Positions 3,204 to 61,188 of a DNA stretch of 64,000 bases are shown here, piece by piece; the stretch's first letter is position 1, and every line of letters begins with the position of its first letter. Position numbers and translations under genes: made by a program. Under the pieces are notes generated by a model that saw only the letters and a list, made by a program, of their open reading frames with translations, made no database searches and was not told the DNA's origin. The stretch comes from an uncultured Clostridia bacterium (lineage in GTDB: Bacteria; Bacillota; Clostridia; TANB77; CAG-508): positions 204,348 through 268,347 of the forward strand of contig OV788638.1 of NCBI GenBank assembly GCA_928721565.1, given 5' to 3'.

Positions 3204-5612
3204 TTAATTCATATTTCTAAGCATATCTAATGTTGCATTAATATATCTATTTGCAAAATTTTTATTCACAACTGACTGATGTCCTGTAACTCCTTGTTTT
3301 GGTAATTCTATTAATGCTGTTTTAGCTGCTCTATTTGTTGAACCTAAATAAGTTCTTCCCCATGCTATCATATATCCTGTTCCATATCTCCCAACAGACT
3401 TTTTATTATTTTCTGGAAATTGCCTATCATAATATGAACAAATTTCTTCATTGCCTATTAATTGTTGTGTCCATCCATGCAAATCAACTAGAAGTGTTTG
3501 TCCATTTTGTGATTTATTAGCCAACATAAAATTCCTTAACGTTTGTGCTTCATATGCTTGAAATCCAGCTGTTCCATTATAATTTCGGCTAGATGTAAAT
3601 CTTTGATATGAACTTCCTATTTGCCAACATCTATTCATGTCAATTCCTTTATTGTTAGGTGCTTGACTATATAGCGTTGTTCTTCCAGGTCCATTATTAG
3701 TCCATCCATTTGTTAATCCATCTTGATTAATACCTGGGAATATGTATATTGTCCATTTATCTGCCAAATCGTAATCTTTATCATTTAATAATTTATTATA
3801 AAATTGATTTGCAATATCAACTAATTCATATCCATCTCGACTCCATATATCCTCATACCCATGAATTGCAAATGTTGCAAAAAATACATTAGGTCCATTT
3901 CCATATTTTAAATAATTCAAATTATTTCCACCTTGCCCAGAAACCCTTAAACCTGTTTGTCCATATGTTCCTGATTGGTATTCTATTTTAGGTCTAATAT
4001 TTATATTAACTATTTTTTCTAATATCAAATTATTCTGTTTATCAAAGGCCTGAACCTTTAATACTCCTTTTGTGTTTGCTAGTTCGCTTAAATTTAATAT
4101 TGCTTCGAATCCAGGTAATGGATTATATTCTTTTCCTCCATAACCTTTTATTATTTCAAGTACATCATTTCTTGATGTTCTTGTTATCCCAGAATCAATT
4201 TTTTCATCATTAAATAATATCCTAATATTTACATTTTCAATATTAGTCATTAACCAGCCTTTAACCTTTACTTTTTCTGCTCCAACTTTGTTAGCTGGTT
4301 CGTCTATATACATAGTCACTCTGTCATGTGCAATTTTAGGTACTATTTTTATTTCTATTGCTTCTAGTCTTAGTCCTTTTTCTTCAGTTCCTGCAGTTTC
4401 TCCATCATTTGCCCAACCTTGCCATCCAACATCTTGTACTAGTACTCTATATTCAATGCTATATTCCTCTGTGTTTTCGATTTCTATCTTTATAGCCTCT
4501 ATTCTTTTGCTCTGCGATACCGTTCCTGCAATCTCTCCATTGTATTTCCAATCTTGCCAGCCTATATCTTGTACATGTACCCTATATTTTATTCTCATAT
4601 TATCAGTTGCATTAATTAAGTTTAATTTTATTGCTTCTATTCTTAGCAATCTTCCTTCTGTTCCTGCTTTTTCGCCATCTTTTTTCAAATTTTGCCACCC
4701 AATATCTTGCACATGTGCTGAATATGTTACATGAAGTTCTGTATCATAAAATATGTGTGATTCTAAAGTTCCTATTACTTTTCCTTTAGAATTTATTGTG
4801 TCAATTTTTATTATATGTTGACCTGCACTTAAATCTCTTGTATCAATTTCAAAACTATATTGTGGCATTAGATTCTGTTTAACAGTTCCATATCCTACTA
4901 CTCCTTTAATAACATCAGGTCTTTCTGCATATTTTATTCTATCTTCATCTAATTTTATTTGGTCAAAATAAGCTACTATCTTTGTATCTGAAACATCAGC
5001 CATTTTCCAACCAACTACATTTATTTTATCATTTTTATAATACACTGTTCCATCTTGTGCTTGATCCAAGTTCATTAAAACCTTAGCTCTTTTTTCTACT
5101 ATCTTTATTTCTATCGCTTCTAATCTTTTTAATTGTCCTTCTGTTCCTGCTGTCTCTCCATCATATTTCCAATCTTGCCATCCTATATCTTGGATATGTA
5201 CTCTATACATTATTGAATATTCTTCTGTTTCTTCTAATTCTATTTTTATCGCTTCTAATCTTTTAGATTGTCCTTCTGTTCCTGCTAATTCTCCATCATA
5301 TTTCCAGCCTTGCCATCCTATATCTTGTACATGTGTTTTATACTTTATTTTTATACCATCTGGCAAATTAGTTGAATTGATTTTTATTGCTTCTAATCTT
5401 TTAGATTGTCCTTCCGTTCCTGCCAATTCTCCATCATTTTTCCAACCTTGCCATCCGACATCTTGTACATGACAACTATATGTAACTCTAATATTTCCTT
5501 CCTCATACTCATTTCCTTGCACTTTCATCATTATAGCTATTTGCAATACAATTAAAAGCATTAATGCTTTTAACACTTTATACCCCTTATTATTTTTCAC
5601 TAAATATACCAC
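3204..5612 (-). CDS. Secreted ChW-repeat (clostridial hydrophobic W) protein with a C-terminal M14-like zinc carboxypeptidase / gamma-D-Glu-DAP peptidase domain
   Basis: A signal peptide is followed by at least 9 copies of a ~50-aa unit, Y..HVQDIGWQ.WK.DGE.AGT.G.SKRLEAIKI (the ChW consensus). The C-terminus has HGYE ... DLHGW, which resembles the M14 HxxE...H zinc ligands. Confidence 0.65.
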   Translation of the reverse strand: MVYLVKNNKGYKVLKALMLLIVLQIAIMMKVQGNEYEEGNIRVTYSCHVQDVGWQGWKNDGELAGTEGQSKRLEAIKINSTNLPDGIKIKYKTHVQDIGWQGWKYDGELAGTEGQSKRLEAIKIELEETEEYSIMYRVHIQDIGWQDWKYDGETAGTEGQLKRLEAIEIKIVEKRAKVLMNLDQAQDGTVYYKNDKINVVGWKMADVSDTKIVAYFDQIKLDEDRIKYAERPDVIKGVVGYGTVKQNLMPQYSFEIDTRDLSAGQHIIKIDTINSKGKVIGTLESHIFYDTELHVTYSAHVQDIGWQNLKKDGEKAGTEGRLLRIEAIKLNLINATDNMRIKYRVHVQDIGWQDWKYNGEIAGTVSQSKRIEAIKIEIENTEEYSIEYRVLVQDVGWQGWANDGETAGTEEKGLRLEAIEIKIVPKIAHDRVTMYIDEPANKVGAEKVKVKGWLMTNIENVNIRILFNDEKIDSGITRTSRNDVLEIIKGYGGKEYNPLPGFEAILNLSELANTKGVLKVQAFDKQNNLILEKIVNINIRPKIEYQSGTYGQTGLRVSGQGGNNLNYLKYGNGPNVFFATFAIHGYEDIWSRDGYELVDIANQFYNKLLNDKDYDLADKWTIYIFPGINQDGLTNGWTNNGPGRTTLYSQAPNNKGIDMNRCWQIGSSYQRFTSSRNYNGTAGFQAYEAQTLRNFMLANKSQNGQTLLVDLHGWTQQLIGNEEICSYYDRQFPENNKKSVGRYGTGYMIAWGRTYLGSTNRAAKTALIELPKQGVTGHQSVVNKNFANRYINATLDMLRNMN

Positions 5613-5621
5613 CTTATTTAA

Positions 5622-6599
5622 TTATTTTAAAAACACTAAATACGCTAAAACCGGAAAATGAAACAACACAATCTCTCTAACCATCTTTTTACCTTGATTC
5701 TTTCCAGCTAAAATTTTAAAAAACTCACTAAAATTCCAATTAATTTTAGTACTCTTCAAAACATCTGAATAATACCTTTCCGCTTCTTCCATAAACATCT
5801 GATCATCTCTGATAGCCGCATATTCCTTGCACATTTTAATACCACCAAGATAAGCTCTATTAATAGCATCTTTTCTGTATTCTAAAAAAGAGTTATAACT
5901 ATTGCCATGATCATTTTTCCATCTAGCAAGATTCTGATTTAAACTTCTTCCACCAAAAACATTAGTTCCATGTAATCTATAATCGAACAGAGCATCTTCA
6001 ATATAGCATATACCTTTTCCTTCATTCGCAAGAAATGCGGCAAGCCAATCATGTGCAATAACATCTTTTTTAAATGGAATCATTTTTTCTTTAACAGTTT
6101 TGGTAATAATTTGCGAACATCCTATTCCAACACATCTTGAAATAGCCAATTTGCTATTTTCTTTTACTAATGGCACATTTTTGTATTTAAAGTAATCATC
6201 TTGAATAACAACTCCATCTTCGTCAATTTGTCTACAGTTGCAATAGACCATATCAACATTTTCTTCTTTTAATTTAGATAAGCTTTTTTCAACTTTATCT
6301 TTATGCCATATATCATCATGATCTGAAAACATTATATAATCTGCTGTTGATTGTTGTAGTAAAAATTCAAAATTTTTATTATACCCTAAGTTTTTAGGTT
6401 GAATATACAATTCTATCCTTTTATCTTGCATTTTATATTGTTTCAATATTTTCGCAATTTGTGGATTAGTAGAATTGTCATCACTTATGTATATTTTAAT
6501 ATTTTTATATGTTTGGTTTAATATACTTTCTATTTGCTTTTTTAAATATTTTTCATTGGTATTATATGTTGTAACTAAAATATCAACTAATTCTTCCAT
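5622..6599 (-). CDS. Family-2 glycosyltransferase, paralog of 447..1442
   Basis: DILVTTYNTNEKYLKKQIESILNQTYKNIKIYISDDNSTNP; the N-terminal 50 residues align with the other GT2. Confidence 0.75.
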   Translation of the reverse strand: MEELVDILVTTYNTNEKYLKKQIESILNQTYKNIKIYISDDNSTNPQIAKILKQYKMQDKRIELYIQPKNLGYNKNFEFLLQQSTADYIMFSDHDDIWHKDKVEKSLSKLKEENVDMVYCNCRQIDEDGVVIQDDYFKYKNVPLVKENSKLAISRCVGIGCSQIITKTVKEKMIPFKKDVIAHDWLAAFLANEGKGICYIEDALFDYRLHGTNVFGGRSLNQNLARWKNDHGNSYNSFLEYRKDAINRAYLGGIKMCKEYAAIRDDQMFMEEAERYYSDVLKSTKINWNFSEFFKILAGKNQGKKMVREIVLFHFPVLAYLVFLK

Positions 6600-6602
6600 A
6601 TT

Positions 6603-7310
6603 TTATCCCTTTTCTAATTTTTCATTAAAATATAATTTTGTTATTAACCTTAATTCATTTAGTGATTCATCTTTTAAATTAAATGAAAACAATTTTTTAG
6701 GTGGTGCCATAACTATATATTTTATGGCATTCATTGTGCTCTCACTCATTTGCAGGCAACTTTTGTCTTGCCTTCCACATGCAGAACATTTAAATCCATT
6801 ATCTCTTAAGCTAAAGTATATCAATTCTTCTTTTTGCTTACAATTTACACATTCTGTTATCCTTGGTGTAAAACCTAAAAAACATAATATTTTTAATTTA
6901 AATATACTTGTTATTAGTTCTGGATTTTTGTCTGTTTCTGATAATGTATATAATGTGTTTAAAAATAATTGTAAAATTTTATAGCAGTTTTCATTTTCAT
7001 CTGTCACATCTCTAATTATTTTTGTCATTCCTACTGCGTAATTTAGCTTGTCCAAATCTGTTCTTAAATTGTAAAATACTTCTATTGTTTCACAGGAATT
7101 TATGTTATATGTATTTGCTCCTTTATACATTAAATATTCTCCAAAACACAAGAATTGTGTTCCTGCAAGTAAGGCGCTTCTTTGTCTTCTGGCGCCTTTT
7201 GCAACACATGATATTTTACCTAATCCTGGTGTTAACATTGTTAGCATTTTGTCATAATCACCTAAATTATTTTCAGAAATTATTATACCACTCATTTTTA
7301 TTGTTCCCAT
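6603..7310 (-). CDS. recO: DNA repair protein RecO
   Basis: An OB-fold N-terminus (GIIISENNLGDYDKMLTMLTPGLGKISCVAKGARR) is followed by a C4 zinc finger CVNC...CSAC. The gene sits directly downstream of era. Confidence 0.8.
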   Translation of the reverse strand: MGTIKMSGIIISENNLGDYDKMLTMLTPGLGKISCVAKGARRQRSALLAGTQFLCFGEYLMYKGANTYNINSCETIEVFYNLRTDLDKLNYAVGMTKIIRDVTDENENCYKILQLFLNTLYTLSETDKNPELITSIFKLKILCFLGFTPRITECVNCKQKEELIYFSLRDNGFKCSACGRQDKSCLQMSESTMNAIKYIVMAPPKKLFSFNLKDESLNELRLITKLYFNEKLEKG

Positions 7311-7440
7311 TCTGTTCCTCCATTGGCTGTTTTATTTTTTTATCTATTTGTTCTTCTATATTTTGTATTTGTTTTAGTTCTAAAAATGTATTTACATCTC
7401 CTGTGTTTTTAAAGGTATTCCATGCAATTTTTTTAATCAT
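7273..7440 (-). CDS. yqzL: YqzL-family small protein (55 aa), absent from the ORF track
   Basis: Manual translation gives MIKKIAWNTFKNTGDVNTFLELKQIQNIEEQ..., matching the YqzL pattern (W..F..TG.I..YL..K.I). The conserved era-yqzL-recO synteny supports it. Its 3' end overlaps the recO start by about 38 nt. Confidence 0.5.
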   Translation of the reverse strand: MIKKIAWNTFKNTGDVNTFLELKQIQNIEEQIDKKIKQPMEEQNGNNKNEWYNNF

Positions 7441-7498
7441 AAGCTCACTTCCTCTAATTCTATCTTTCGCAATTCGTATACAAATTATGCATTTATCT

Positions 7499-8404
7499 CT
7501 ATTGTAATTTAAATTTTTTTACTATTGTTGAATCATCTTGCCAATCCTCTTTAACTTTTACCCATGTTTTTAAGTTTACTTTTGTTCCAAAATTTGCTTC
7601 CATATCTATTCTAGCTGATTGACCTATTCGTTTCAACATACTGCCATTCTTACCAATTATAATCCCCTTATGAGAATTTCTTAGACAATAAATTGTTGCT
7701 TCTATGTCATACATAGGTTCTCCATTTTGATTTTTTCTGTATTTCATTTTCTCAACTTCAACATATATTCCATGTGGTACTTCATCTTGTAAGAATGTAA
7801 GTGCCTTTTCTCTTATTGTTTCTTCTGCTAGTTGTCTTAATGTTTGATCTGTATACTCCTCTGTATCATAATATGCAGGACCTGGTTTTAGGTTCTTTTC
7901 AATTTCGTCTAAAATTATATTTCTATATTTTGTTTGTAAAGATGATATCGGTATTACAGCTTCAAAATTATATTCTTTTTGGTATATATCTATTAATTTT
8001 AGAAGTTTTTCTCTTTTTATTAAGTCTATTTTGTTTATTATTAGTATGGCTTTTTTATTTGATTCTTTTATTTTTTCAAGAATTCTCATGTCTCCTCTAC
8101 CAATTTCTTCACTTGTAGCTTCTATTACAAATAATATTAAATCTATTTCGTTTATAACTCCAAAAGAAGTTTCTACCATTGTTTCATTTAATTTTGTTTT
8201 TGGCTTATGAATTCCTGGTGTATCTATAAATATTATTTGTGAATTTTCTCTATTAACAATCCCTCTAATTGCTGTTCTTGTTGTTTGAACTTTGTTTGCT
8301 GTTGCTGCTACTTTCTCACCTACTAATAAATTTACTAATGTGGATTTCCCAACATTGGTTCTTCCAAGCATTGCAACAAAGCCTGATTTAAATTCTTTTT
8401 TCAT
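7499..8404 (-). CDS. era: GTPase Era
   Basis: G1 motif GRTNVGKST, followed by G3/G4 motifs and a C-terminal KH domain. Confidence 0.9.
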   Translation of the reverse strand: MKKEFKSGFVAMLGRTNVGKSTLVNLLVGEKVAATANKVQTTRTAIRGIVNRENSQIIFIDTPGIHKPKTKLNETMVETSFGVINEIDLILFVIEATSEEIGRGDMRILEKIKESNKKAILIINKIDLIKREKLLKLIDIYQKEYNFEAVIPISSLQTKYRNIILDEIEKNLKPGPAYYDTEEYTDQTLRQLAEETIREKALTFLQDEVPHGIYVEVEKMKYRKNQNGEPMYDIEATIYCLRNSHKGIIIGKNGSMLKRIGQSARIDMEANFGTKVNLKTWVKVKEDWQDDSTIVKKFKLQ

Positions 8405-8418
8405 TTTGCTTTCCTTTC

Positions 8419-10740
8419 TTAATTTTCAAGTTCCTCTTCTTTTACTGTGTATTCCAATACATTAATTGTTTTAATGATTAACTTTGATGCAATATCATTA
8501 TCATCTTCTAATCTTCCTACTCTAATTACCTTTTTACTATTAAGAGTTATATCTGTGTCTAAAATATTAACTAAAATTCTTGTATCTTTGTCCATTCCAA
8601 CAGGTAATGTCTTATTTTGGTTATCATAATAAACACAATTTGAAAAAGCTATTGCTTTTACTCCTTTTTCAAGGTTCATTTTATATAAATTAACTTTTCC
8701 ACTTTCTGTATCCATTAGTGCATTTTCTATTTCTTTTTCCGGATTTAAATTAAAGACATTGAGCTCATTTGTGTCTATATTTTCTTCTTCTTCAATCCAT
8801 TTATAAACTGCAACTTCTTGTGATAATTTGTTTTTACATATTGCACTTTCAATTATGTCTATTGCATTACTTAATGCTGCTTTATATTCTACTGTTTTCA
8901 TTGGTTTTGCCACTCTTAATATTGCATATTTATTTTTAGGGTGTTCTCTATGAGATTTATTAGCTAGTTTAGTTATTTTTCTAGTGTCTTCTGCTAATCC
9001 TCCAAATATATCTATAACATCTTCTTCTGTAATGTCTTTTTCATTCTGTAAATCTTTCTTTATTCTTCTCATCCATTTTTCTACTTCTTTTGGCTCTGTT
9101 GAATTTGTTTTTATTTTATTCATTATTTCAAGTTGGTTTGTTGTTGTTAGATATACACAGTCCAATTCTTCTTTTGAAAAAATTTGCCTCTGAATCTTGT
9201 CCATGTCTTCTCCAAATTCTTCCATATCTTCTTCATAATCGAATACTTTTGAATGAGGTTTTATATTTATTGGTTCTTCTTCTCCTTCATCTAAAGTTTG
9301 AACTTCATCCTTGTTACTATATTTCCAAAATTCAAATATACTTCTTTTATGACTATCTATCTCATTTATAAATGCTGTTGCATTTTCTATTTTTTTCACT
9401 AAATTTATATTTTTCAATTTTAGTGCATTAATATCCATCTTAGTATTTTTTAGATTATTCTCTTTTTCATTAGTTTCTTTTCCTTTTTGTATTAATTCTT
9501 CTAATGTATATTGTGCTTTAACTTTTTCCTTTATCTCTTCTTTAACAAGTTTTGTTTCCTCCTCTTCTTCTGTTTCTTGTTTTTTCTTTATTTTTGATTT
9601 TTTTCCACTATATTTAAAGAAATATTTTACTTTTCCAAAAAAAGTTTTTTTGCATTCTAGATATGTTGATATTTGTTTTTCTTTACTTAAATATTCTATA
9701 TCTAAATCTTGTGCTTGCCTTTTTAGTTTTAATAATTTTCCTTGTAATGAATTGTTTTGACTTATTGCATTTTTTTCTAAATCAAATAATTTTTGGTATT
9801 CTATATTTAGCCAATCACTTAATTCGTCATATTTCATCAGTTTATCATTATAATAAAATTCTAAACTCCCTTGTTTATCGATTCTTGTTTCGAATTGATA
9901 ATAATTAGATAGTTCTGATTGGATAATAAATAGTGCTTTTACTAATTTAAAAAATTTAGTTGCTTCTATTTTATTTGAAAGTTTTACCTTATATTCTGAT
10001 TTTATTTTTCCATATATTTCTGTTTCTCCTACAATTTGTAGACTGATTTTTCCGCTTTTATCATATACTTCATAAATTGATGGCCAGTCTTTGGTAAATA
10101 ACCACAAATAATTTTCTAGACTTTGTATTTCTGTTTTATTTAATAGTTCTCTACTATAGTCCACATTGCTAATTGGTACAAATATTTTTCCTGCTTTTTT
10201 CTTTTCTATTTGTTTTTTTAATACATAAAAGAAAGTTGAATAATCTTTATCTTCTGTTGGAACAATCATAAAATATTGATCAGTTACTTCTGAATAATAT
10301 ATTTGCCATAGATAATTTCCTGAATATCTTACTTTAAATGGAATCTTTTTATTAATTAGTTGTTGTTCTTGTTCTACTTTTTCAATTTCTTCTATTTTTA
10401 CTTCATCTAACATGCGCAAAAAAGTAGCATACTTTTGTTGTTCATCTTCGTCTTTACTATTTGGTTCTAAGTAATCTGCTAGTGGACTTGATTTTGAATA
10501 TTTTTCTTTTATATCATCTAATCTATTAGTTGGTGATAATAGTATTTGTATCTCTTTTGGTGAAACAAATCTATATTGTCTATACTTTTTTTCATCAAAT
10601 CCAGAATTTGGCCTAAATTTTAAATCTTCAACTAATTTTAAAGTTTTAGGTATTTCATCCAAGTCTAGCCCTATAAATTCTAACTTTTTCTTTATCTCTT
10701 GAGTCTTATTTTTCTTTTCCAAAGTAGTTTCTCCTCTCAA
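8419..10740 (-). CDS. Large (773 aa) cytoplasmic hypothetical protein, K/E-rich, with coiled-coil segments
   Basis: A long ORF with no TM segment and no recognisable catalytic motif. It contains a central poly-K/E stretch (KKKQETEEEEETKLVKEEIKEK). Confidence 0.35.
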   Translation of the reverse strand: MRGETTLEKKNKTQEIKKKLEFIGLDLDEIPKTLKLVEDLKFRPNSGFDEKKYRQYRFVSPKEIQILLSPTNRLDDIKEKYSKSSPLADYLEPNSKDEDEQQKYATFLRMLDEVKIEEIEKVEQEQQLINKKIPFKVRYSGNYLWQIYYSEVTDQYFMIVPTEDKDYSTFFYVLKKQIEKKKAGKIFVPISNVDYSRELLNKTEIQSLENYLWLFTKDWPSIYEVYDKSGKISLQIVGETEIYGKIKSEYKVKLSNKIEATKFFKLVKALFIIQSELSNYYQFETRIDKQGSLEFYYNDKLMKYDELSDWLNIEYQKLFDLEKNAISQNNSLQGKLLKLKRQAQDLDIEYLSKEKQISTYLECKKTFFGKVKYFFKYSGKKSKIKKKQETEEEEETKLVKEEIKEKVKAQYTLEELIQKGKETNEKENNLKNTKMDINALKLKNINLVKKIENATAFINEIDSHKRSIFEFWKYSNKDEVQTLDEGEEEPINIKPHSKVFDYEEDMEEFGEDMDKIQRQIFSKEELDCVYLTTTNQLEIMNKIKTNSTEPKEVEKWMRRIKKDLQNEKDITEEDVIDIFGGLAEDTRKITKLANKSHREHPKNKYAILRVAKPMKTVEYKAALSNAIDIIESAICKNKLSQEVAVYKWIEEEENIDTNELNVFNLNPEKEIENALMDTESGKVNLYKMNLEKGVKAIAFSNCVYYDNQNKTLPVGMDKDTRILVNILDTDITLNSKKVIRVGRLEDDNDIASKLIIKTINVLEYTVKEEELEN

Positions 10741-19106: not shown

Positions 19107-19391
19107 TTATCTTTTCATATATTTAAGTTTTGTGGCCATTCCTCCTCTTATATGTCTTTCTGCTTTATTTTCGTCTAGTATTTCTCTGACTTCTTTTGCT
19201 AGTAATGGATTTATTTTTTCAAGTCTTTCGGTTACATCTTTGTGTACTGTGCTTTTACTTATACCAAATAATTTTGCGGCTCCTCTTACTGTATCTTTAG
19301 AATCTATAATATAATGCGCCAAATTTACAGAGCGTTCTTCTATAAATTTTTTCTCCGAAATTGACGAATTGTGAAAATTTACTTTTTTCAT
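19107..19391 (-). CDS. spoIIID: Stage III sporulation transcriptional regulator SpoIIID
   Basis: FGISKSTVHKDVTERLEKINPLLAKEVREILDENKAERHIRGGMATKLKY is near-identical in pattern to Bacillus SpoIIID. Confidence 0.85.
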   Translation of the reverse strand: MKKVNFHNSSISEKKFIEERSVNLAHYIIDSKDTVRGAAKLFGISKSTVHKDVTERLEKINPLLAKEVREILDENKAERHIRGGMATKLKYMKR

Positions 19392-19531: not shown

Positions 19532-19777
19532 CTAAGCAAATATTTCTTCAGTGTCTTCTGCTAAAAAGCTTTTTGCAAAGCTTTCAATCTGATTCAGAAG
19601 ATCATTGTCAGAAACGTTGCTACTTATTCGGAACTTAAATAATATTATTTGAGAACATTTTTCTCTGATTGATTTCAGTTCCTCTTTTGTTGGTGGTTTT
19701 TTGAGTTTTTCGAAGTTCTCATCAAATTTGAGAACCTCCTCGATAAGTTCCTCCTGTTGCTGTACCCATTCTGTCAT
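19532..19777 (-). CDS. Small acidic hypothetical protein (81 aa) with elevated GC and atypical codon usage
   Basis: An ORF of about 36 % GC in a roughly 27 % GC background, using ctc/ctg/agc codons that are rare elsewhere. It is followed by a strong hairpin. Confidence 0.4.
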   Translation of the reverse strand: MTEWVQQQEELIEEVLKFDENFEKLKKPPTKEELKSIREKCSQIILFKFRISSNVSDNDLLNQIESFAKSFLAEDTEEIFA

Positions 19778-19883: not shown

Positions 19884-21668
19884 TCATTTTAATCTTAAAT
19901 AACCTAGCTCTTCCCACATATTATAAGCTAAATTTAATCTAAACAATACTTTAGGCTTTGCTCCTGCTCTATTTTTATCAACAACACATGCATAGTATCT
20001 TACATCTGGATCTTTATATTTTTTCAAATCAAAAAATTCGGTATCAACTTCTTCTAGTGAATACTGATATTTGTCTAAATCCTCATTATGTATTTGTTTA
20101 ATTAAGCATAATGTATCTAATACTTCCTTTACTGTTCTACTTACAGCCAAATCATTAATACTTAAATTAATAGGCAATGTACTGCTCTCTGTTAATTGCA
20201 AAGATGATGCAATAAAAATATTCAAATTTTGTGCTAAATTAGAAAGAATAGTTGCAGTCTTTTTTAACTCTTCTCCATTTCCTATATTTTCTGTGTCTGT
20301 TTTTAATGTATCATAAAACATATATTCAATCTTTTCTTTGTAGTAATAATTTAAAATAACTTTTTCTAATTCATCATTTGTATGGTTTGTAATATTTACA
20401 AAATATATTGAATTTTTTATTTGTTTGTCTATCCATTGGGTAACTGCTACTGTCTTTCTAAAGTCCTCTGATATTTCCATTAGTCTTTTTGCAAATTTAC
20501 TCTGAGTTTCATTTTCATTTTTCAACACATAACCATTTTCATCTACTTTAACATCAATACCAGAATCTGGCTTAAACTTAAACTCTAATAATTCTCCCTC
20601 TGTTTTTATTATATCCTGTCCATGTAACTTTTGAATTTCTTTATTATTTAAAACAGTTGTTATTAGACATAATTTCATTTTTTCTTCTGACATTTCATTA
20701 GATATTATTAAAACTTTTTTATGATGTATAAATGCTAAATGCGCAGCTAAGTTTATAGTAAATCTACTCTTTCCTGAGTTTGATGGCATTGCATATGCCA
20801 TTGTTTCTCCTTTTCTTAATCCTTTAAAAACACTACTTAGTATAGGAAATGGTAGTTCTACTCCTGTTGTTAGACTATTATCTCCTGTTAATAAAAAGTC
20901 TGTAATATGACTGCTCAATACTGCTCTTTTAAATTTTTCCGTAGTTGTTATTTGTACAATTGCATCTTTTACTTCTTCAATTGTCATTTGGTCATATAAT
21001 TCATATTTTAAAATATCTACAATTTTTTCTTGAGTTTCTTTTATTGGGTTTGCTAAATAACTTTTTCTTATCTCAAATAATTTTCTTAATTCTACATATG
21101 TTTTTTCAAAACTATAATTAGCTTTTTTTACTTTTTCTTTTAATTCAGTTTTTTGTTGATATGTTTCTGGGCCTTCTTTTGCAAAATTAAATTCATTTTT
21201 TGCAATTTGTGGTGCATATGCTTGTCCTTCTGTAAATAACACACTTTTATATAAGTTTAATAATTTATCACTTTTAAAATAACAGTCTTCATGTAATATA
21301 TAATACATTGATATAGCCTTTGGATTTTCTAATAAAAGTCCTATATATATTTCTTCTAATTCTTCATCACATAATTCTTTTGGATAAATGCTGTCATCTT
21401 CTTTTTGATTTCTTTCTTCTATGTCTTTAGGAACAATATCTTCTTTAAACAATTCCTCATCTGCTTCTTCTTTAATTTCATCGATAAGAGAAAAATTTTT
21501 TAGTTTTATTTTTCCTTCTTGTCTTAGCTGATTTAATATACTTATCGCTTTTGTATAATCAGCTTTTTCAATCATATTTTTTATTTGTTTAATTTGTTCT
21601 TTGTTTTCTTCTGTAACTTCGATTTTTTCTATTAAATCGATTAAGTTATCTATTCCACTGTTTTTCAT
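19884..21668 (-). CDS. Divergent DnaB-family helicase-like protein (DnaB N-terminal domain plus RecA-like C-terminal domain), 594 aa
   Basis: EELEEIYIGLLLENPKAISMYYILHEDCYF is the DnaB N-domain motif. Walker A is AMPSNSGKS. IFIASSLQLTES resembles H4. The C-terminal YACVVDKNRAGAKPKVLFRL resembles the DnaB IAKNRNGPTG tail. Confidence 0.55.
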   Translation of the reverse strand: MKNSGIDNLIDLIEKIEVTEENKEQIKQIKNMIEKADYTKAISILNQLRQEGKIKLKNFSLIDEIKEEADEELFKEDIVPKDIEERNQKEDDSIYPKELCDEELEEIYIGLLLENPKAISMYYILHEDCYFKSDKLLNLYKSVLFTEGQAYAPQIAKNEFNFAKEGPETYQQKTELKEKVKKANYSFEKTYVELRKLFEIRKSYLANPIKETQEKIVDILKYELYDQMTIEEVKDAIVQITTTEKFKRAVLSSHITDFLLTGDNSLTTGVELPFPILSSVFKGLRKGETMAYAMPSNSGKSRFTINLAAHLAFIHHKKVLIISNEMSEEKMKLCLITTVLNNKEIQKLHGQDIIKTEGELLEFKFKPDSGIDVKVDENGYVLKNENETQSKFAKRLMEISEDFRKTVAVTQWIDKQIKNSIYFVNITNHTNDELEKVILNYYYKEKIEYMFYDTLKTDTENIGNGEELKKTATILSNLAQNLNIFIASSLQLTESSTLPINLSINDLAVSRTVKEVLDTLCLIKQIHNEDLDKYQYSLEEVDTEFFDLKKYKDPDVRYYACVVDKNRAGAKPKVLFRLNLAYNMWEELGYLRLK

Positions 21669-21731
21669 ATATTATTCTTCCTTTCTTCTGTACACATATC
21701 AATTTTAGTATACACATTTTTCTTTCTATTT

Positions 21732-22382
21732 TCAAGATAAATATAAAATATTCTCTAATATTTCTTTTTCTGATGCTACAAGTATTGCTCCGTCTTTTAT
21801 TAATTCATTACATCCTTCACTTTCTGTTCTTGTTATATCTCCTGGAACTGCAAAAACCTCTTTACCTTGTTCTAATGCAAAGTCAGCGGTTATTAATGCT
21901 CCGCTTTTTTTAGTTGCTTCTACAACTAGCACACCATTTGATAACCCACTTATTATTCTATTTCTTTGTGGAAAATATTGTTTTTGTGGCATTGTTCCTA
22001 TTGGGTATTCCGAAATTATGCATCCACCATTTTTTACTATTTTTCTGGCTAACTCAATATTTTCTTTAGGATATATTTTATCAATTCCGCTTCCTAATAC
22101 AGCAATAGTTCCTCCTTCTAATGCTCCAAGATGTGCATATGTATCAATCCCTAATGCCAATCCACTTATTATCACAACTCCTTTTTTATTTAATTCTTTT
22201 GAAATATTATAAGCTATTTTTCTGCCATATATAGTGGATTTTCTAGCTCCAACAATTGCAACACTTTTTTTATATAATAATTCTTTATTTCCTAATATAT
22301 ATATTTTTGCTGGTGGATCATATATTTGTTTCAATTTGTTTGGATATTCTTTTAAGTTTTTTGTTAGTTCTTCTATTCTCAT
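21732..22382 (-). CDS. dprA: DNA processing protein DprA/Smf; short form with the Rossmann domain only
   Basis: VAIVGARKSTIYGRKIAYNISKELNKKGVVIISGLALGIDTYAH...GDITRTESEGCNELIKDGA. At 216 aa it lacks the N-terminal SAM domain and C-terminal DML1 domain of long DprAs. Confidence 0.8.
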   Translation of the reverse strand: MRIEELTKNLKEYPNKLKQIYDPPAKIYILGNKELLYKKSVAIVGARKSTIYGRKIAYNISKELNKKGVVIISGLALGIDTYAHLGALEGGTIAVLGSGIDKIYPKENIELARKIVKNGGCIISEYPIGTMPQKQYFPQRNRIISGLSNGVLVVEATKKSGALITADFALEQGKEVFAVPGDITRTESEGCNELIKDGAILVASEKEILENILYLS

Positions 22383-26729: not shown

Positions 26730-28484
26730 TTAATCTAATATAGCTTTAATTCTTCTAACACCTGATGAACTAGATTCTTCTTTCTTTATTTTAAAATGGC
26801 CTAATTCAGATGTGTTATGTACATGAGGACCTCCACATAATTCTATTGACTTATCCCCTATTTTATATACAGAAACTATATCTCCATATTTTTCAATAAA
26901 CATTGCTTCTGCTCCAAGTCTTATTGCTTCATCTTTTTTCATTTCTAAGTGTTCTACTGGAATTGCTTCTTTTATCCATTCATTTACTAAATCCTCTGTT
27001 GCTTTTTTCTCTTCGTCTGTCATTTTAGCAGGATGTGAAAAGTCAAATCTCATTCTTTCTGCTGTTATATTACTACCTCTTTGATGAACATGTGAGCCTA
27101 GTACTTGTTTCAATGCTGCATTTAATAAATGTGTTGCTGTATGATATTTTGTTTCCATCTCTCCTGTTGATGCTAATCCTCCTTTGAATTTTTGCTCTGC
27201 TCCAGCTCTTGATTTTTCTTGATGTTCTTTAAATAGTTTTGTAAATCCCTCTTTATCAATTTTCATTCCATTCTCGGCAGCTAATTCTTCAGTAACTTCT
27301 GGTGGAAATCCATATGTATCATATAGCCTAAATACTATTTTTCCTGGTACAATATTTTTATTTTGTTGTTTTACAGTGTCTATTTCTTTTGAAAATTCTT
27401 TTTCACCTTTTACAAGTGTTTTTACAAACTTATCTTTTTCTTCTATTATTACTGTTTTTATTGTTTCTTTATTTGTTTCAAGTGCAGGATACATTTCTTT
27501 TAAGTTTTCCACATTCAAGTCTATTAATGTTACTAATTCATCTAATGATATTTGTAATTTATTCATATGTCTAACCATTCTACGTATTAGTCTTCTTAAT
27601 ACATATCCTCTATCTACATTACTTGGTCTTCCACCATCACATATTATCATCATACTTGAACGTAAATGTTCTGCAACAATTCTTCTACTTGCAATATTAT
27701 CTACTTTTTGTAAATCTACTAGTTTATCCATTATTGGTGCAAATAATTCAGTTTCAAATGGTGTTTCTTTTCCTTGTAATAACATTGCCATTCTTTCTAA
27801 TCCCAATCCTGTATCTACATTATGTTGTTTTAGTTTTGAGTATTCTCCATTTTCATCTTTATAAAATTCCATGAATACATTATTCCAAATTTCAACATAT
27901 TTTCCACATCCACATGATGGATTACATTCTGGTGAACACTTTGGTTTTCCAGTATCATAAAACATTTCTGTATCTGGTCCACATGGTCCTGTTTCCCCTG
28001 CTATCCACCAGTTATCATCTTTTCCAAAATAATATATTCTTTCTTCTGGAATTCCTGCTTTTTTCCAACATTCTGCTGTTAATGTATCTCTAGAACAATC
28101 TTTGTCTCCTTCAAAGCATGTTACAGATATTTTTTCTGCTGGTATTCCTAATTCTTTTGTTAAGAATTCATAACTCATTTGAATTGATTCTTCTCTAAAA
28201 TAATCCCCTAATGACCAGTTTCCAAGCATCTCAAAATATGTTAGATGGCGATTATCTCCAACTTCGTCAATATCATTTGTTCTAACACATTTTTGATAAT
28301 CTGTTAATCTTGTTCCTGCAGGGTGCTTTTCCCCTAGCAAATATGGTTCTAATGGTTGCATACCTGCTGTTGTAAATAATACTGATGGATCATTTTCTGG
28401 AATTAATGATGCTGAAGGTATTACTGCATGTCCATGTTTTTTAAAAAATTCTAAATATTTATTTCTTATTTCTATTGCTTTCAT
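26730..28484 (-). CDS. alaS: Alanine--tRNA ligase, compact form (584 aa) that ends after the editing domain and lacks C-Ala
   Basis: Class II AlaRS N-terminus (HAVIPSASLIPENDPSVLFTTAGM, WWIAGETGPCGPDTEMFYD). The editing motifs HTATHLL and CGGPHV are present. The ORF stops at GVRRIKAILD, which corresponds to about residue 740 of an 876-aa AlaRS. Confidence 0.75.
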   Translation of the reverse strand: MKAIEIRNKYLEFFKKHGHAVIPSASLIPENDPSVLFTTAGMQPLEPYLLGEKHPAGTRLTDYQKCVRTNDIDEVGDNRHLTYFEMLGNWSLGDYFREESIQMSYEFLTKELGIPAEKISVTCFEGDKDCSRDTLTAECWKKAGIPEERIYYFGKDDNWWIAGETGPCGPDTEMFYDTGKPKCSPECNPSCGCGKYVEIWNNVFMEFYKDENGEYSKLKQHNVDTGLGLERMAMLLQGKETPFETELFAPIMDKLVDLQKVDNIASRRIVAEHLRSSMMIICDGGRPSNVDRGYVLRRLIRRMVRHMNKLQISLDELVTLIDLNVENLKEMYPALETNKETIKTVIIEEKDKFVKTLVKGEKEFSKEIDTVKQQNKNIVPGKIVFRLYDTYGFPPEVTEELAAENGMKIDKEGFTKLFKEHQEKSRAGAEQKFKGGLASTGEMETKYHTATHLLNAALKQVLGSHVHQRGSNITAERMRFDFSHPAKMTDEEKKATEDLVNEWIKEAIPVEHLEMKKDEAIRLGAEAMFIEKYGDIVSVYKIGDKSIELCGGPHVHNTSELGHFKIKKEESSSSGVRRIKAILD

Positions 28485-50255: not shown

Positions 50256-51364
50256 GGTTTGTCAAACATATGTCACACTTTATTGATGAATCTAGTGTTT
50301 CGTATACCAAATATGATATGTTGGCTCTACAATGCTTGAAATTCCTCATATTTCTCATTTGGACTTTTCCATCCTAATGGTTTCATTGGAAAGTTATTAT
50401 ACTCTCTTGACCAATGCCTTAATTTTTCTTTAAAATCTTCAAAACTTACAAATATTCTCTTGTAATAAAATCTTTCTTGATCCTTTCTATGACTTCTTTC
50501 TACTTTTCCGTTATGCCTTGGTGTCCTTGGTTTTATTAGTTTATGCTCTATTCCCATTTCTTCCATTCTCTTTTCAAACATTGTCTTCTCTTTTGCTTTT
50601 CTCGAATTTAGTCTATTTGTAAATTCAAATCCATTGTCTGTTTGTATACATTCTATTTTATATTTGAATTTCTTTATTATTATTTCTAAAAATTGTGTTG
50701 ATGCATAGGTACTATGTTCTTTGCTAGCCCATAATACTCTCTGCCTTGTATACTCATCTATTGCTGTATATTGATAATATTTCTCTTCTAGCTCTTTCAA
50801 TTCATTTGACATACATTTCTGTGGCACATATTTTACATCTATTTGTATTCTTTCTCCTGGATGACTCATTTTCTGATATGGTTTTGGTTCATATTTTTTC
50901 TTTTTACTTGGTGCTTTTTTATATATTCCTAGTCTTTGCATCACCCTATACAAACTCGTTATTTGCCTTGTATATCCGTTTCTTATCAATTTTATCCACA
51001 ATACCACTAACCCTGCGTCTGGGTTTTGAGCTTTATATTTCTTTATCATTTTTATTTCTTCCTGTGTATGTTGATTTGGGTGTGAATGTGGTCTTCTTGA
51101 TTTATTCACTAATGATTTTCTACTTCCATCATATTTTTCTCTCCATCTATATATTGTTTTTCTATGCTGTTTATATCTTTTCGCTGCTTCTGTCACTCCG
51201 TGTTTTAATGAATATTCTACAACTGATTGCTTAAATATTATATCTTGTGTTATACTATTCATAGGAAATACCTTCTTTCGATATTAGTTTTGTGGTAAAA
51301 ACATTATATCATATTGGTATTTCCTTTTTTTATTCTTTAGTGTGACATATCTATTGTAAACCTA
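50256..51364 (-). mobile_element. IS481-family insertion sequence (about 1.1 kb, single transposase ORF) with roughly 26-bp imperfect terminal inverted repeats
   Basis: IRL is taggtttgtcaaacatatgtcacact. The reverse complement of IRR is taggtttacaatagatatgtcacact. The element is flanked by identical 27-bp direct repeats. Confidence 0.7.
50327..51262 (-). CDS. IS481-family DDE transposase (N-terminal HTH plus rve integrase core)
   Basis: D-D-E triad context IQIDVKYVP / IQTDNGFEF / HNGKVERSHR, with an N-terminal HTH KTIYRWREKYDG. Confidence 0.8.
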   Translation of the reverse strand: MNSITQDIIFKQSVVEYSLKHGVTEAAKRYKQHRKTIYRWREKYDGSRKSLVNKSRRPHSHPNQHTQEEIKMIKKYKAQNPDAGLVVLWIKLIRNGYTRQITSLYRVMQRLGIYKKAPSKKKKYEPKPYQKMSHPGERIQIDVKYVPQKCMSNELKELEEKYYQYTAIDEYTRQRVLWASKEHSTYASTQFLEIIIKKFKYKIECIQTDNGFEFTNRLNSRKAKEKTMFEKRMEEMGIEHKLIKPRTPRHNGKVERSHRKDQERFYYKRIFVSFEDFKEKLRHWSREYNNFPMKPLGWKSPNEKYEEFQAL

Positions 51365-52021: not shown

Positions 52022-52654
52022 TTAATCTTTTGCTAATGTTAATATTCCTATTTGTTTTCTATTTACTCCATTTTTTACTAGTGCCTTTGCACATTCATTT
52101 ACTGTACTTCCAGTTGTATATATATCATCAAATAAGAGAATTTTTTTATCTTTTATTTTATAGCAATTTTTTGCTTTGTATGAATCTTTTGCATTCTCTT
52201 CTCGCTGTGCCTTATTTAATGTACTTTGTGGTACTGTGTTCTTGCATTTATATAATATGTTATCTATTACAGGTACATCGAGTAATAATGCTATTTGTCT
52301 AGCAATTAATTCACTTTGATTATATCCTCTTTCTTTTTTTCTTTCATTACTTATCGGTACTATCATTATTATATCATATATTTTTAATTTTTCAAAACTT
52401 TTTTGCATATTTTTTAAAAAATATGTAATTGTTTGGCAATAATATGGTTTTTCTTTGAATTTAAGATTTAATATTTGTTCTCTTATTAAATCTTTATATT
52501 TAAAAAAGTAATAATGTTTTTCAAAATATTTGCTTGTGTCGTTTTGGTAATCATCTATTTCAAATGAGTATTCTTCTTTTAACTTATTATTACATTTATT
52601 ACATAATGATTTGGTATTTAGTTTTCCACATATGCTACATACTTGTGGATACAT
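52022..52654 (-). CDS. comFC: ComF-family protein (ComFC/GntX; N-terminal zinc ribbon plus phosphoribosyltransferase fold)
   Basis: CSICGKL...CNKCNN zinc ribbon and LLFDDIYTTGSTVNECA PRTase motif. Confidence 0.75.
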   Translation of the reverse strand: MYPQVCSICGKLNTKSLCNKCNNKLKEEYSFEIDDYQNDTSKYFEKHYYFFKYKDLIREQILNLKFKEKPYYCQTITYFLKNMQKSFEKLKIYDIIMIVPISNERKKERGYNQSELIARQIALLLDVPVIDNILYKCKNTVPQSTLNKAQREENAKDSYKAKNCYKIKDKKILLFDDIYTTGSTVNECAKALVKNGVNRKQIGILTLAKD

Positions 52655-58917: not shown

Positions 58918-61188
58918 CTAATAATTTTTTTTCATTTGATTTAATGTATTATTCATTCTTGGCGAAAATCCATTACTATTATTATTTCTTATTGATGGTG
59001 GTGCATACTTTTCTTTTTTATTACCACTTTTGTATACCATATTAGCTAAATTCCTTAAACTTTGAATAAATTCTTTAGAGTATCCTTTTAATGATATATC
59101 ACAGGTTACTAATCCATCTAAATATCTTAAATATGATTTAAGATCAAATGGTATTGTAACATGTTTTACTGTTTTTCTATCAAATAATTCTTTTCTAACA
59201 GTCATTGATGCATCATTATATATTGAAATTCCACCTATTAATATTCCTTCACTAATCTCTCTTGTATTTATGAATTTATTTAATACTACTCTTGCTTTTG
59301 ATTCTTCAAACATGCCTTTATCACTTAATTGTCTTAAAAATGCTGTAAGTGGTTGTATTGTTAAAATATCCATTGATTGAACTATATATATTTCTTGAGC
59401 ATATTTAAAATATCTATTTGGTGTTGTAAAATCACAATCCATTAATACAACTGTATGCATTTCTAATAGAGTTTGTACTATTGGCTCAACTGCCTCTAAA
59501 TTTTCATCCTTCTCAAATGGAGATGTGTATATAGTTAAATTTTTATGAGCTTGTATTCCATTTGCTTTACCTATTTTTAAATTTTTCATTATATAATTTG
59601 ATTGATTTCGTAGTTCTTCTTCATTTTTGGTATATATATAATATGCATTTCTGTTTTGTGTTAAATCCAATATCGCTGTATTTATACCGTTTGTTGATAA
59701 TATTTCTGCCACATTGTTTATTAAAAATGATGTTCCATTTTTACTAGTTCCAACAAATGCTGCTAGTTTTTGATTTGAGTTTATTATATTATCTATATTT
59801 AATTCAGGATATTGTTCTATTTCTTCTTTTTTATTAATTTCGTTTGACGTTTTTAAACTATTTAGAACATTTGCATATTGTTCTTCAATTCTGTCATCAT
59901 TATCATTATTTTCAAATCCTGGCAATGTTGTTTCTTCTTCACTATCTTCAAATCCTGGTAGTGTTGTTTCTTCTTCACTGTTTTCGAATCCTGGTAATGT
60001 TACTTCTTCCTCACTATTTTCGAATCCTGGTAAAGTTGTTTCTTCTTTACTGTTTTCAAATCCTGGTAAAATTGTTTCTTCTTCACTGTTTTCGAATCCT
60101 GGTAATGTTGTTTCTTCTTGTTCTTCAACAGGTTTAACCTTTGGCGGTCTTCCTCTTTTTCTTTTTGGTTGTTCTGCTGCTGGTTCTTCTACCTTCTTTT
60201 TTGGTGGTCTTCCTCTTCCACGTTTTACAGGTTTCATTTCTTCTTTTTCTATATTTTCAATCTTTTCTATTTCATCAGGTATTGTTTCTGGAACTACTTT
60301 TGGTCTTTTCTCACTAATTGGCTTAGATGTATCTGCTGGTTTTGTAAGTATTTTTTTCTTCTTTAATCCTATTGTAGAAGGAATAACTACTGGTGCACTT
60401 GGTTTTTTTGTTCTACTATTGTTTAATAGTATTTCGCTTGTTCCCTCTTTTTCTTGTGGCTTTTCTAACCTTACTTTATCAGATATTTTATTACTATATG
60501 AGTTTACTTCTTGATATTTTTTAGATTTTTCTTCTAAAACTGCTCTTACATTAAGTGGCAAGCATTTGCTTATTACTTTTAATTGTGTATCATTGTATTG
60601 GCTTGCTATACTGTCAAAGCTTTCTACATATTTTTCTTCATCATTACCAATTCTTTTGTAATGTGCTAATATATTTTGAATTTCTAATTCACTAACATCA
60701 TTTTCATCATCTTTTTCATATGTTACATCTTCTGTATCTATCTTATAATAGATTTTAGCTTCTTTTTTTGAACGTGGTCTTTTTATTAGTTTGCAAACCT
60801 CACTTGCGCTTCTGTCATTTCCTAATAGTATGTCATATATTCCTATTCCAAATAATTTAACTAATATTTGTTCTGATTTGTTTCTTCTTTCTGTACATAT
60901 TAAAATTATAGGAATATTTTCTCCTTTAGTATTTGAAGCTTCATCACTAATACTATCTAATCTATCAAATAAGAATTTGTCCATTTGTTCATAATCAGTA
61001 TTAACATATTGTTCCAAATCTTCGCTTATTACTATTCTATCATATGTTTTGTCTCTTTGTAATTCTTTTAATATTGCATTAAAGTAATAAACATTTTTGT
61101 ATGATATTATTTGTTTATATTCTGCTTGATATTTTTTTATTATAGCTTGTGATGTATTTTCATTACTTACTGCAAATAAAACTTTCAT
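58918..61188 (-). CDS. 756-aa multidomain protein: N-terminal atypical receiver-like domain, basic AT-hook region, six 12-aa tandem repeats, and a C-terminal ParA/MinD-like domain with a degenerate P-loop (TadZ/CpaE-like ends with a roughly 300-aa insert)
   Basis: Receiver-like MKVLFAVSNE...RIVISEDL...IPIILICTERR...GIYDILLG. AT-hooks KRGRGRPPKKK and KRKRGRPPKVK. Six EETTLPGFENSE repeats. A Walker A-like FVGTSKNGTSF and Walker B-like VVLMDCDFTTP about 110 aa apart. Confidence 0.5.
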   Translation of the reverse strand: MKVLFAVSNENTSQAIIKKYQAEYKQIISYKNVYYFNAILKELQRDKTYDRIVISEDLEQYVNTDYEQMDKFLFDRLDSISDEASNTKGENIPIILICTERRNKSEQILVKLFGIGIYDILLGNDRSASEVCKLIKRPRSKKEAKIYYKIDTEDVTYEKDDENDVSELEIQNILAHYKRIGNDEEKYVESFDSIASQYNDTQLKVISKCLPLNVRAVLEEKSKKYQEVNSYSNKISDKVRLEKPQEKEGTSEILLNNSRTKKPSAPVVIPSTIGLKKKKILTKPADTSKPISEKRPKVVPETIPDEIEKIENIEKEEMKPVKRGRGRPPKKKVEEPAAEQPKRKRGRPPKVKPVEEQEETTLPGFENSEEETILPGFENSKEETTLPGFENSEEEVTLPGFENSEEETTLPGFEDSEEETTLPGFENNDNDDRIEEQYANVLNSLKTSNEINKKEEIEQYPELNIDNIINSNQKLAAFVGTSKNGTSFLINNVAEILSTNGINTAILDLTQNRNAYYIYTKNEEELRNQSNYIMKNLKIGKANGIQAHKNLTIYTSPFEKDENLEAVEPIVQTLLEMHTVVLMDCDFTTPNRYFKYAQEIYIVQSMDILTIQPLTAFLRQLSDKGMFEESKARVVLNKFINTREISEGILIGGISIYNDASMTVRKELFDRKTVKHVTIPFDLKSYLRYLDGLVTCDISLKGYSKEFIQSLRNLANMVYKSGNKKEKYAPPSIRNNNSNGFSPRMNNTLNQMKKNY
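59911..60126. repeat. Six tandem 36-bp coding repeats inside the 756-aa gene
   Basis: ttc[a/g]aatcctggtaatgttgtttcttcttcact[a/g]t[c/t] x6, encoding (E)ETTLPGFENSE. Confidence 0.9.

Follow-up and report, generated by a model that had tools for sequence, protein, structure and literature searches.

A phage-type DnaB-family helicase with a novel N-terminal appendage, kept as a core gene in gut Clostridia of the order TANB77

What is a divergent helicase of the DnaB family, standing between a DNA-processing gene and a sporulation gene, doing in the chromosome of a gut bacterium? The question is raised by a stretch of 64,000 nucleotides from an uncultured Clostridia bacterium of the order TANB77, family CAG-508 (assembly GCA_928721565.1, contig OV788638.1, positions 204,348 to 268,347), which is referred to here as the window. 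It is chromosomal DNA with a G+C content of ~28%, nearly all genes on the minus strand and one rRNA operon. The gene in question, called HEL here, occupies positions 19884..21668 (-) as a whole coding sequence and encodes a protein of 594 amino acids, identified from its open reading frame (ORF), its match to PHROG_19 and its predicted structure. Our results give good support to the view that HEL is a domesticated, lineage-wide DnaB helicase of phage type that carries a novel N-terminal appendage. The explanation that we favour for its retention is that it serves at the chromosomal replication fork, as a replacement or as the principal fork helicase, and that it has possibly displaced DnaB; we hold this tentatively, as an explanation that falls a little short of probable.

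Domain models applied to the single HEL sequence hardly recognise it. The Pfam model DnaB_C (PF03796) aligns with residues 269-338 at 27.6 bits, essentially at its cutoff of 27, and PF00772 gives no match. TIGR00665 aligns with residues 102-339 at 33.2 bits against a cutoff of 385, and HEL also lies far below every cutoff of the PRK replicative-helicase models. PHROG_19, annotated as 'DnaB-like replicative helicase', covers residues 27-588 (3e-23). A profile of 44 family sequences, used against the PDB, matched solved DnaB at 1.6e-14 with the N-domain included, and the family profile (A3) aligns to residues 4-242 of Aquifex DnaB. The AlphaFold2 model of HEL, which has a predicted local distance difference test score (pLDDT) of 85, is composed of a three-helix module, an acidic linker, a DnaB N-domain with its hairpin and a RecA-like domain. 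Full-length Foldseek searches returned DnaB of Aquifex, Geobacillus, E. coli and Vibrio, G40P of phage SPP1 and gp41 of phage T4, with E values from 1e-18 to 1e-15.

All four parts of the protein can be placed on the minus strand of the window. The three-helix N-terminal module (residues 1-58, defined on the AlphaFold2 model) lies at 21495..21668 and the acidic disordered linker (residues 59-95, defined by pLDDT and D/E content) at 21384..21494. They are followed by the DnaB-type N-terminal domain, with its helical head and helical hairpin, at 20934..21383 (residues 96-245; TIGR00665, profile and model) and by the RecA-like ATPase domain at 19887..20864 (residues 269-594; DnaB_C and invariant residues). 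The hairpin corresponds to model helices 167-182 and 187-206. The catalytic motifs are intact across 44 family members. In Walker A (SNSGKS), N297, G299, K300 and R302 are invariant and S296 is kept in at least 90% of sequences; N324 and E325 are invariant in the motif of the catalytic Glu (NEMS), and so are Y452 and D453 in Walker B (FYDTLK), where T454 and K456 reach at least 90%. Q491 is invariant as well, and in the KNRAG motif K565 and R567 are invariant, with N566 and G569 at 90% or more. With a RecA-like domain bearing these motifs and a helical N-domain with a hairpin, HEL is a member of the DnaB helicase superfamily. A first-pass annotation, made from the letters of this DNA, had described it as a divergent 594-residue DnaB-family protein with an N-domain and a RecA-like domain, and the profile and structural comparisons bear this out.

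The fold of HEL is that of cellular DnaB/DnaC (TIGR00665; PDB 4ESV, 4NMN and 6BBM), with ~515 aligned columns and a Foldseek E value of ~1e-18. Like cellular DnaB, HEL possesses the hairpin N-domain, the linker, the RecA-like domain, Walker A and B, the catalytic Glu, the Gln and the K-x-R motif. Unlike cellular DnaB, to which it is 13-17% identical, it is not located beside rplI and it has an N-terminal extension. The segment from the catalytic Glu to Walker B has ~25 extra residues in HEL compared with the ~100 of canonical DnaB. A phmmer search of HEL against all PDB sequences gave E values of 0.007 or higher, confined to the surroundings of Walker A, with Twinkle (8E2L) as a weak match. 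Against 1.84 billion representatives, phmmer gave only 466 clusters of relatives at E <= 1e-3. A tblastn search with a canonical DnaB sequence detected no copy of the HEL family except for a weak match on a phage contig (L012, E 1e-5). With a score far below the equivalog cutoff of TIGR00665, HEL is not an ortholog of cellular DnaB.

Two other identities were considered and rejected. RadA/Sms is a RecA/DnaB-like ATPase with a K-N-R-x-G motif, as found in HEL (KNRAG), and HEL stands beside dprA here. Unlike RadA, HEL has no match to a zinc finger or Lon-like domain in Pfam or NCBIfam and has a DnaB N-domain instead; the adjacency to dprA, moreover, occurs in one subclade only. A known anti-phage defence protein was also ruled out, given that no PADLOC family matched HEL at E <= 0.01.

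The relatives outside bacteria point to phages and mobile elements. In a tblastn search of phage genomes, the best match was the 'putative replicative DNA helicase' of Geobacillus virus E3 (5e-29, 32% identity over residues 269-594). IMG/VR contains 289 relatives, and those that are 33-41% identical to HEL lie on viral contigs of 65-200 kb. On the one viral contig whose replication module was read in detail (L020), the homolog, which matches PHROG_19 at 4.6e-30, is encoded together with a Sak4-like protein, a DnaG-type primase, a RecJ-like exonuclease, a split PolA-type polymerase and an ExoV-Dda-like helicase. In a neighbour-joining tree built from 152 sequences, with a canonical DnaB as the root, the 81 bacterial copies all fall into a single clade. 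Otherwise, that clade contains only copies, 59-67% identical, on four IMG/VR contigs labelled as viral (L007-L010); one of these contigs, L007, is bacterial and has a prophage integrase 2 kb downstream of its helicase copy. Among the members of the sister group is a copy on a small integrase-bearing element (P0148), and the phage helicases branch outside. These relatives and this topology show that HEL descends from a phage or mobile element through a single ancient capture. The phage helicases of PHROG_19 (E3, SPP1 G40P, T4 gp41) have the two-domain architecture and the motifs in common with HEL; unlike them, HEL is a stand-alone chromosomal gene of host composition, vertically inherited across the order, with an additional N-terminal module and tail.

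Two further observations may be added. The prophage of L007, at 3582-10256, has genes for an integrase, a repressor and a DnaD-like loader. It also brings a DnaB of canonical type of its own, which is split in two ORFs and 41% identical to B. subtilis DnaC. Co-acquisition of a primase with the helicase was considered and rejected: the DnaG of a related bacterial lineage (L168) is similar to the phage primase in the Toprim core alone, and the C-terminal region that binds the helicase is not shared.

In bacteria, HEL has become a core gene. Its close matches form more than 6000 clusters at 90% identity in the protein database, and relatives were found in 532 of 185,579 GTDB species genomes. Identity range, habitat and synteny are given for the best 80 of the 532 species genomes. 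All 80, with copies 61-85% identical to HEL, are metagenome-assembled genomes of uncultured gut Clostridia. One genome with a 78% identical copy in the same synteny, MGYG000000421, is classified as o__TANB77; f__CAG-508; g__CAG-269 (PMC13106387, supplement). About half of the 80 loci have the order folD-dprA-HEL-(variable insert)-spoIIID-orf283-htrA, which is confined to one subclade. In other genomes HEL has addA/rqcH on one side and peroxiredoxin-fba-smpB on the other, or is preceded by thioesterases and followed by a radical-SAM gene and thyA-folA, or stands between RNase R-smpB and uvrB, or follows fadD-fabG. A more distant lineage (56% identity, 868-908 amino acids) has it between sigE and sigG, which are direct neighbours of each other in related genomes (L170, L172). 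The contexts belong to at least six unrelated housekeeping classes, and no neighbour is conserved across them. Phage-like neighbours were found neither in the window nor in the synteny comparison of the 80 loci, so that HEL, with housekeeping neighbours throughout, is not encoded within a phage replication module. The bacterial clade is monophyletic and broad, and the gene is stand-alone and kept vertically as a core gene.

Composition and selection agree with a long residence in the host. The G+C content at third codon positions (GC3) of HEL is 0.134, which is host-like, most neighbours having 0.11-0.13 and pdp and spoIIID 0.16-0.18. The ratio of non-synonymous to synonymous substitutions (dN/dS) in the core is ~0.05-0.2. 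Between the window and a congener, the core is 86% identical, compared with 92% for LigA, 85% for HtrA, 75% for FolD and 70% for DprA; between two genomes of the distant lineage the values are 78.6% for the core and 81.7% for DnaG. HEL is a long-resident host gene, compositionally ameliorated and under purifying selection.

HEL also has a promoter of its own. A promoter scan located a sigma-A-like consensus match, TTGAAA-17-TATACT, at 21707..21735 (-), where it overlaps the 3' end of dprA. The block TTGAAA...ATGTGTATACTAAAA is conserved upstream of HEL in many species of the dprA-spoIIID synteny class, and in the addA-rqcH class HEL is preceded by TTGATT-17-TATAAT. By its sequence, this promoter looks to be of the sigma-A type and not of the sigma-E, K, F or G types. 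As a separate observation, the block ATGTGTATACTAAAA, which holds the palindrome GTATAC (window 21700-21740 (-), and many of the loci L087-L111), is conserved far beyond what a -10 box needs and may be a putative operator site.

The N-terminal extension is the part of HEL that sets it apart from its phage homologs. The first-pass annotation had described about 110 residues of acidic extension. The extension is present, with a length of ~95-100 residues, but acidity and disorder are limited to residues 59-95, with 38% D/E and a pLDDT below 50 for residues 61-90; residues 1-58 form a confidently modelled module (pLDDT ~95) of helices 2-15, 23-34 and 38-50. The three-helix pattern can be recognised in 60 distinct N-termini of bacterial copies, which represent most of the clade. 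A lineage represented by L005 and P0122 does not have it and starts with D/E-rich repeats instead. In L005 (10001-12670) and in L167-L169, loci of the more distant lineage with the sigE-sigG context, the helicase reaches 868-908 amino acids, with a D/E-rich repeat N-terminus of 300-380 amino acids. Across the clade, between 66 and 381 amino acids separate the start from the conserved IYP motif, and dN/dS of residues 1-95 is 0.2-0.8, which is much faster than in the core. The phage homologs have ~510 amino acids and are without the first ~95 residues and the three-helix module. A Foldseek search with residues 1-58 found no significant structural relative in the PDB. Both the N-terminal module and the acidic tail, whose length varies, were gained by the bacterial copies.

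The choice between a replacement and a second helicase turns on whether these genomes encode a canonical dnaB as well. The genes rplI and dnaB form a classical gene block. Both were looked for by tblastn with B. subtilis DnaC and L9 and by motif regular expressions, in the window and in 174 fetched loci (~3.1 Mb; 3.19 Mb), about half of them from bacteria of the TANB77 type and the rest phage contigs. Apart from the DnaB of the L007 prophage, no canonical dnaB or rplI was present in the window or in these loci, the rest of the genomes lying outside the search. Neither gene was found within 10 kb of rpsF-ssb-rpsR in five contexts of related bacteria, and none of six rpsF-ssb-rpsR neighbourhoods read around S18 orthologs contained the rplI-dnaB block. 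A literature search found nothing on DnaB in TANB77. The genomes of this order are reduced, at ~1.5 Mb, and even complete ones reach only ~80% of the CheckM markers for Clostridiales.

Replacement is favoured by the complete DnaB architecture of HEL and its status as a stand-alone core gene of reduced genomes, by the ~20% of Clostridiales CheckM markers that complete TANB77 genomes miss, and by the finding of no canonical dnaB or rplI in the window, in the fetched loci or in the five rpsF-ssb-rpsR contexts. We propose that an ancestor of TANB77 (family CAG-508) acquired the helicase once, from the replication module of a phage or mobile element, and that it has since been passed on vertically as a core gene that stands alone and has a vegetative promoter of sigma-A-like type from which it is transcribed. 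By homology, the protein would assemble into a ring through the DnaB-type N-domain collar and the RecA-like ATPase ring, and would translocate 5'->3' on single-stranded DNA as the chromosomal replication-fork helicase. Its partner would be the host DnaG primase, and HEL would most likely be the principal fork helicase, possibly the sole one. The N-terminal module and acidic tail may connect the ring with a partner in the cell, for example a loader, an initiator or a basic DNA-binding protein. Hexamer formation, polarity, activity, use at the fork, displacement of DnaB and the role of the tail are what we infer from these comparisons. The stronger form of the proposal, that TANB77 has lost canonical DnaB and that its chromosome is replicated by a captured helicase, with the N-terminal module and tail plugging the ring into the machinery of initiation and loading of the host, is a serious possibility that we would not call likely.

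Four points weigh against this proposal. A canonical DnaB is regarded as present in all bacteria, which makes its loss improbable from the outset. Few replication proteins are usually as well conserved as cellular DnaB, and the HEL core evolves slightly faster than DnaG and is less conserved than LigA. No loader or other partner could be identified for HEL. Finally, the phage relatives use their own primase and polymerase, and we assume that HEL fits the replisome of the host.

Several of the same observations would suit a different role, in which HEL is a second, accessory helicase and the fork is run by a canonical DnaB whose gene lies elsewhere, probably near rplI. Replication restart, unwinding associated with recombination and repair, or interference with the replication of invading phages and plasmids could then be its job. 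The universality of canonical DnaB and the somewhat lower conservation of the core relative to DnaG and LigA favour this role, and the fast-evolving N-terminal module and tail, 66-381 amino acids long, are as expected of a lineage-specific adaptor. Moreover, HEL borders a hot spot of restriction-modification (RM) systems and prophage insertion. However, no partner gene is conserved beside HEL in the six context classes, PADLOC gave no match, and no canonical dnaB was seen in the window and the fetched loci. A redundant ring helicase with a complete N-domain of the primase-binding type, kept in the reduced genomes of 532 species, would also need a strong function. We regard an accessory role as a substantial possibility, without considering it likely.

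Viral take-over of the replication machinery has known precedents. DnaB is treated as universal and vertically inherited, and viral take-overs have been documented for helicase loaders but are not known for the helicase itself. Twinkle, a ring helicase of phage origin (T7 gp4-like) and of the same superfamily, is the fixed replicative helicase of the mitochondrial genome, which is of bacterial descent. It differs from HEL in coming from the gp4 primase-helicase lineage and in being organellar, whereas the take-over by HEL would concern a free-living bacterial order and is hypothetical. In Vibrionaceae, loaders were replaced by viral ones, so that a replication-initiation component of viral origin was domesticated by bacteria (PMC11087808). 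These cases concern the loader, as do those of the phage-derived loaders DnaC and DnaI; HEL is the helicase itself.

What the present data add is a helicase of phage type that has become fixed, under strong constraint, as a core gene in hundreds of uncultured gut species. If HEL has displaced DnaB, it would be the first example in bacteria of a displaced helicase, comparable to Twinkle in mitochondria. Otherwise, HEL would be a second ring helicase that has persisted for a long time and has an essential job. Both outcomes matter for the evolution of replisomes by capture of viral parts, for completeness estimates from marker genes in TANB77, and for the limits to cultivation and the phage susceptibility of this clade, for which a link to immunotherapy response has been described.

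The position of HEL in the window had led the first-pass annotation to suggest a helicase specialised for DNA processing linked to sporulation or transformation, coupled to spoIIID or dprA. This arrangement is kept in about half of the 80 closest genomes, HEL stands between sigE and sigG in another lineage, and RadA, a DnaB-type helicase, is known to take part in transformation together with DprA and RecA. The remaining genomes nevertheless have addA-rqcH, thioesterases-thyA-folA, RNase R-smpB-uvrB or fadD-fabG as neighbours, a variable island separates HEL from spoIIID, the sigma-A-like promoter is conserved within synteny classes, and HEL has no Pfam match to the zinc finger and Lon domain of RadA. 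Since the adjacencies are local to one subclade and the promoter is of vegetative type, coupling to dprA or spoIIID finds no support, and we consider a specialisation of this kind improbable.

The same annotation had doubted that HEL is a prophage remnant, rightly, and a leftover of a prophage or integrative element without cellular function is excluded by our data as a highly improbable reading: although the closest relatives outside the clade are on phages and an integrase-bearing element, PHROG_19 is the best family match and four IMG/VR contigs carry close copies, the 'viral' contig read in detail (L007) is bacterial, no phage genes flank HEL in the window or in the 80 loci, and the gene has host-like GC3, a constrained core, invariant catalytic residues and a monophyletic, order-wide distribution.

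The ORFs and family models place HEL between dprA and spoIIID, as first annotated. Upstream, after a gap of 63 nucleotides, lies dprA at 21732..22382 (-), which encodes 216 amino acids and matches Pfam DNA_processg_A (1.2e-80) and TIGR00732 (269 bits against a cutoff of 191, covering the whole protein). It consists of the Rossmann-fold domain only and leaves no room for SAM or winged-helix domains, given that folD is only 72 nucleotides away. The PADLOC model ShosA matches this dprA at 233 bits, yet a ShosTA system was rejected, as the neighbours are folD and the helicase and none is ShosT-like. A ComF-like phosphoribosyltransferase ORF is found far from dprA, at 52022-52654. Downstream of HEL come an 81-residue ORF at 19532..19777 (-), in a variable slot outside the helicase unit, and then spoIIID at 19107..19391 (-), a neighbour only, identified by TIGR02844 (131 bits against a cutoff of 111.5). 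A Pfam scan of dprA, orf81, spoIIID, orf283 and orf79 showed no phage family, nor did a PHROGs scan of orf81, orf283 and orf79. In the syntenic locus L001, the genes called within 10 kb on each side are housekeeping genes by Pfam or have no Pfam match, with the exception of a methyltransferase/acetyltransferase insert downstream of the helicase. The earlier statement that no phage genes are nearby therefore stands.

The slot that separates the helicase from spoIIID has the look of a hot spot for insertions. In other genomes, this variable island contains type I RM fragments and a GNAT gene (L001), ORFs of 1.4-1.6 thousand amino acids, or a prophage. The 81-residue ORF that fills it in the window is missing from L001, where RM genes occupy the slot. 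Its composition is foreign (GC 0.34 and GC3 0.33, against a GC3 of 0.11-0.13 in most neighbours) and searches of Pfam, PHROGs and PADLOC gave it no family. A promoter of its own, with a near-consensus extended -10, lies at 19842-19814, and a hairpin follows the stop codon.

A few other features of the window deserve mention. An insertion sequence transposase with an rve integrase core lies at 50327-51262 (-), upstream of dut-carD; in related lineages, rpsF-ssb-rpsR stands directly before dut-carD-dnaG-sigA. An alanyl-tRNA-synthetase-like gene at 26730-28484 (-) encodes only 584 amino acids, with tRNA-synt_2c and tRNA_SAD domains and the C-terminal part apparently missing; it is not a pseudogene, because it is 93% conserved in related species. 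Two large ORFs have no Pfam match, one of 773 amino acids at 8419-10740 (-) and one of 756 amino acids at 58918-61188 (-). At 3204-5612 (-), amid glycosyltransferase and ABC-2 genes, an 802-residue protein has six ChW repeats and an M14 carboxypeptidase domain, and is probably a cell-wall-associated enzyme.

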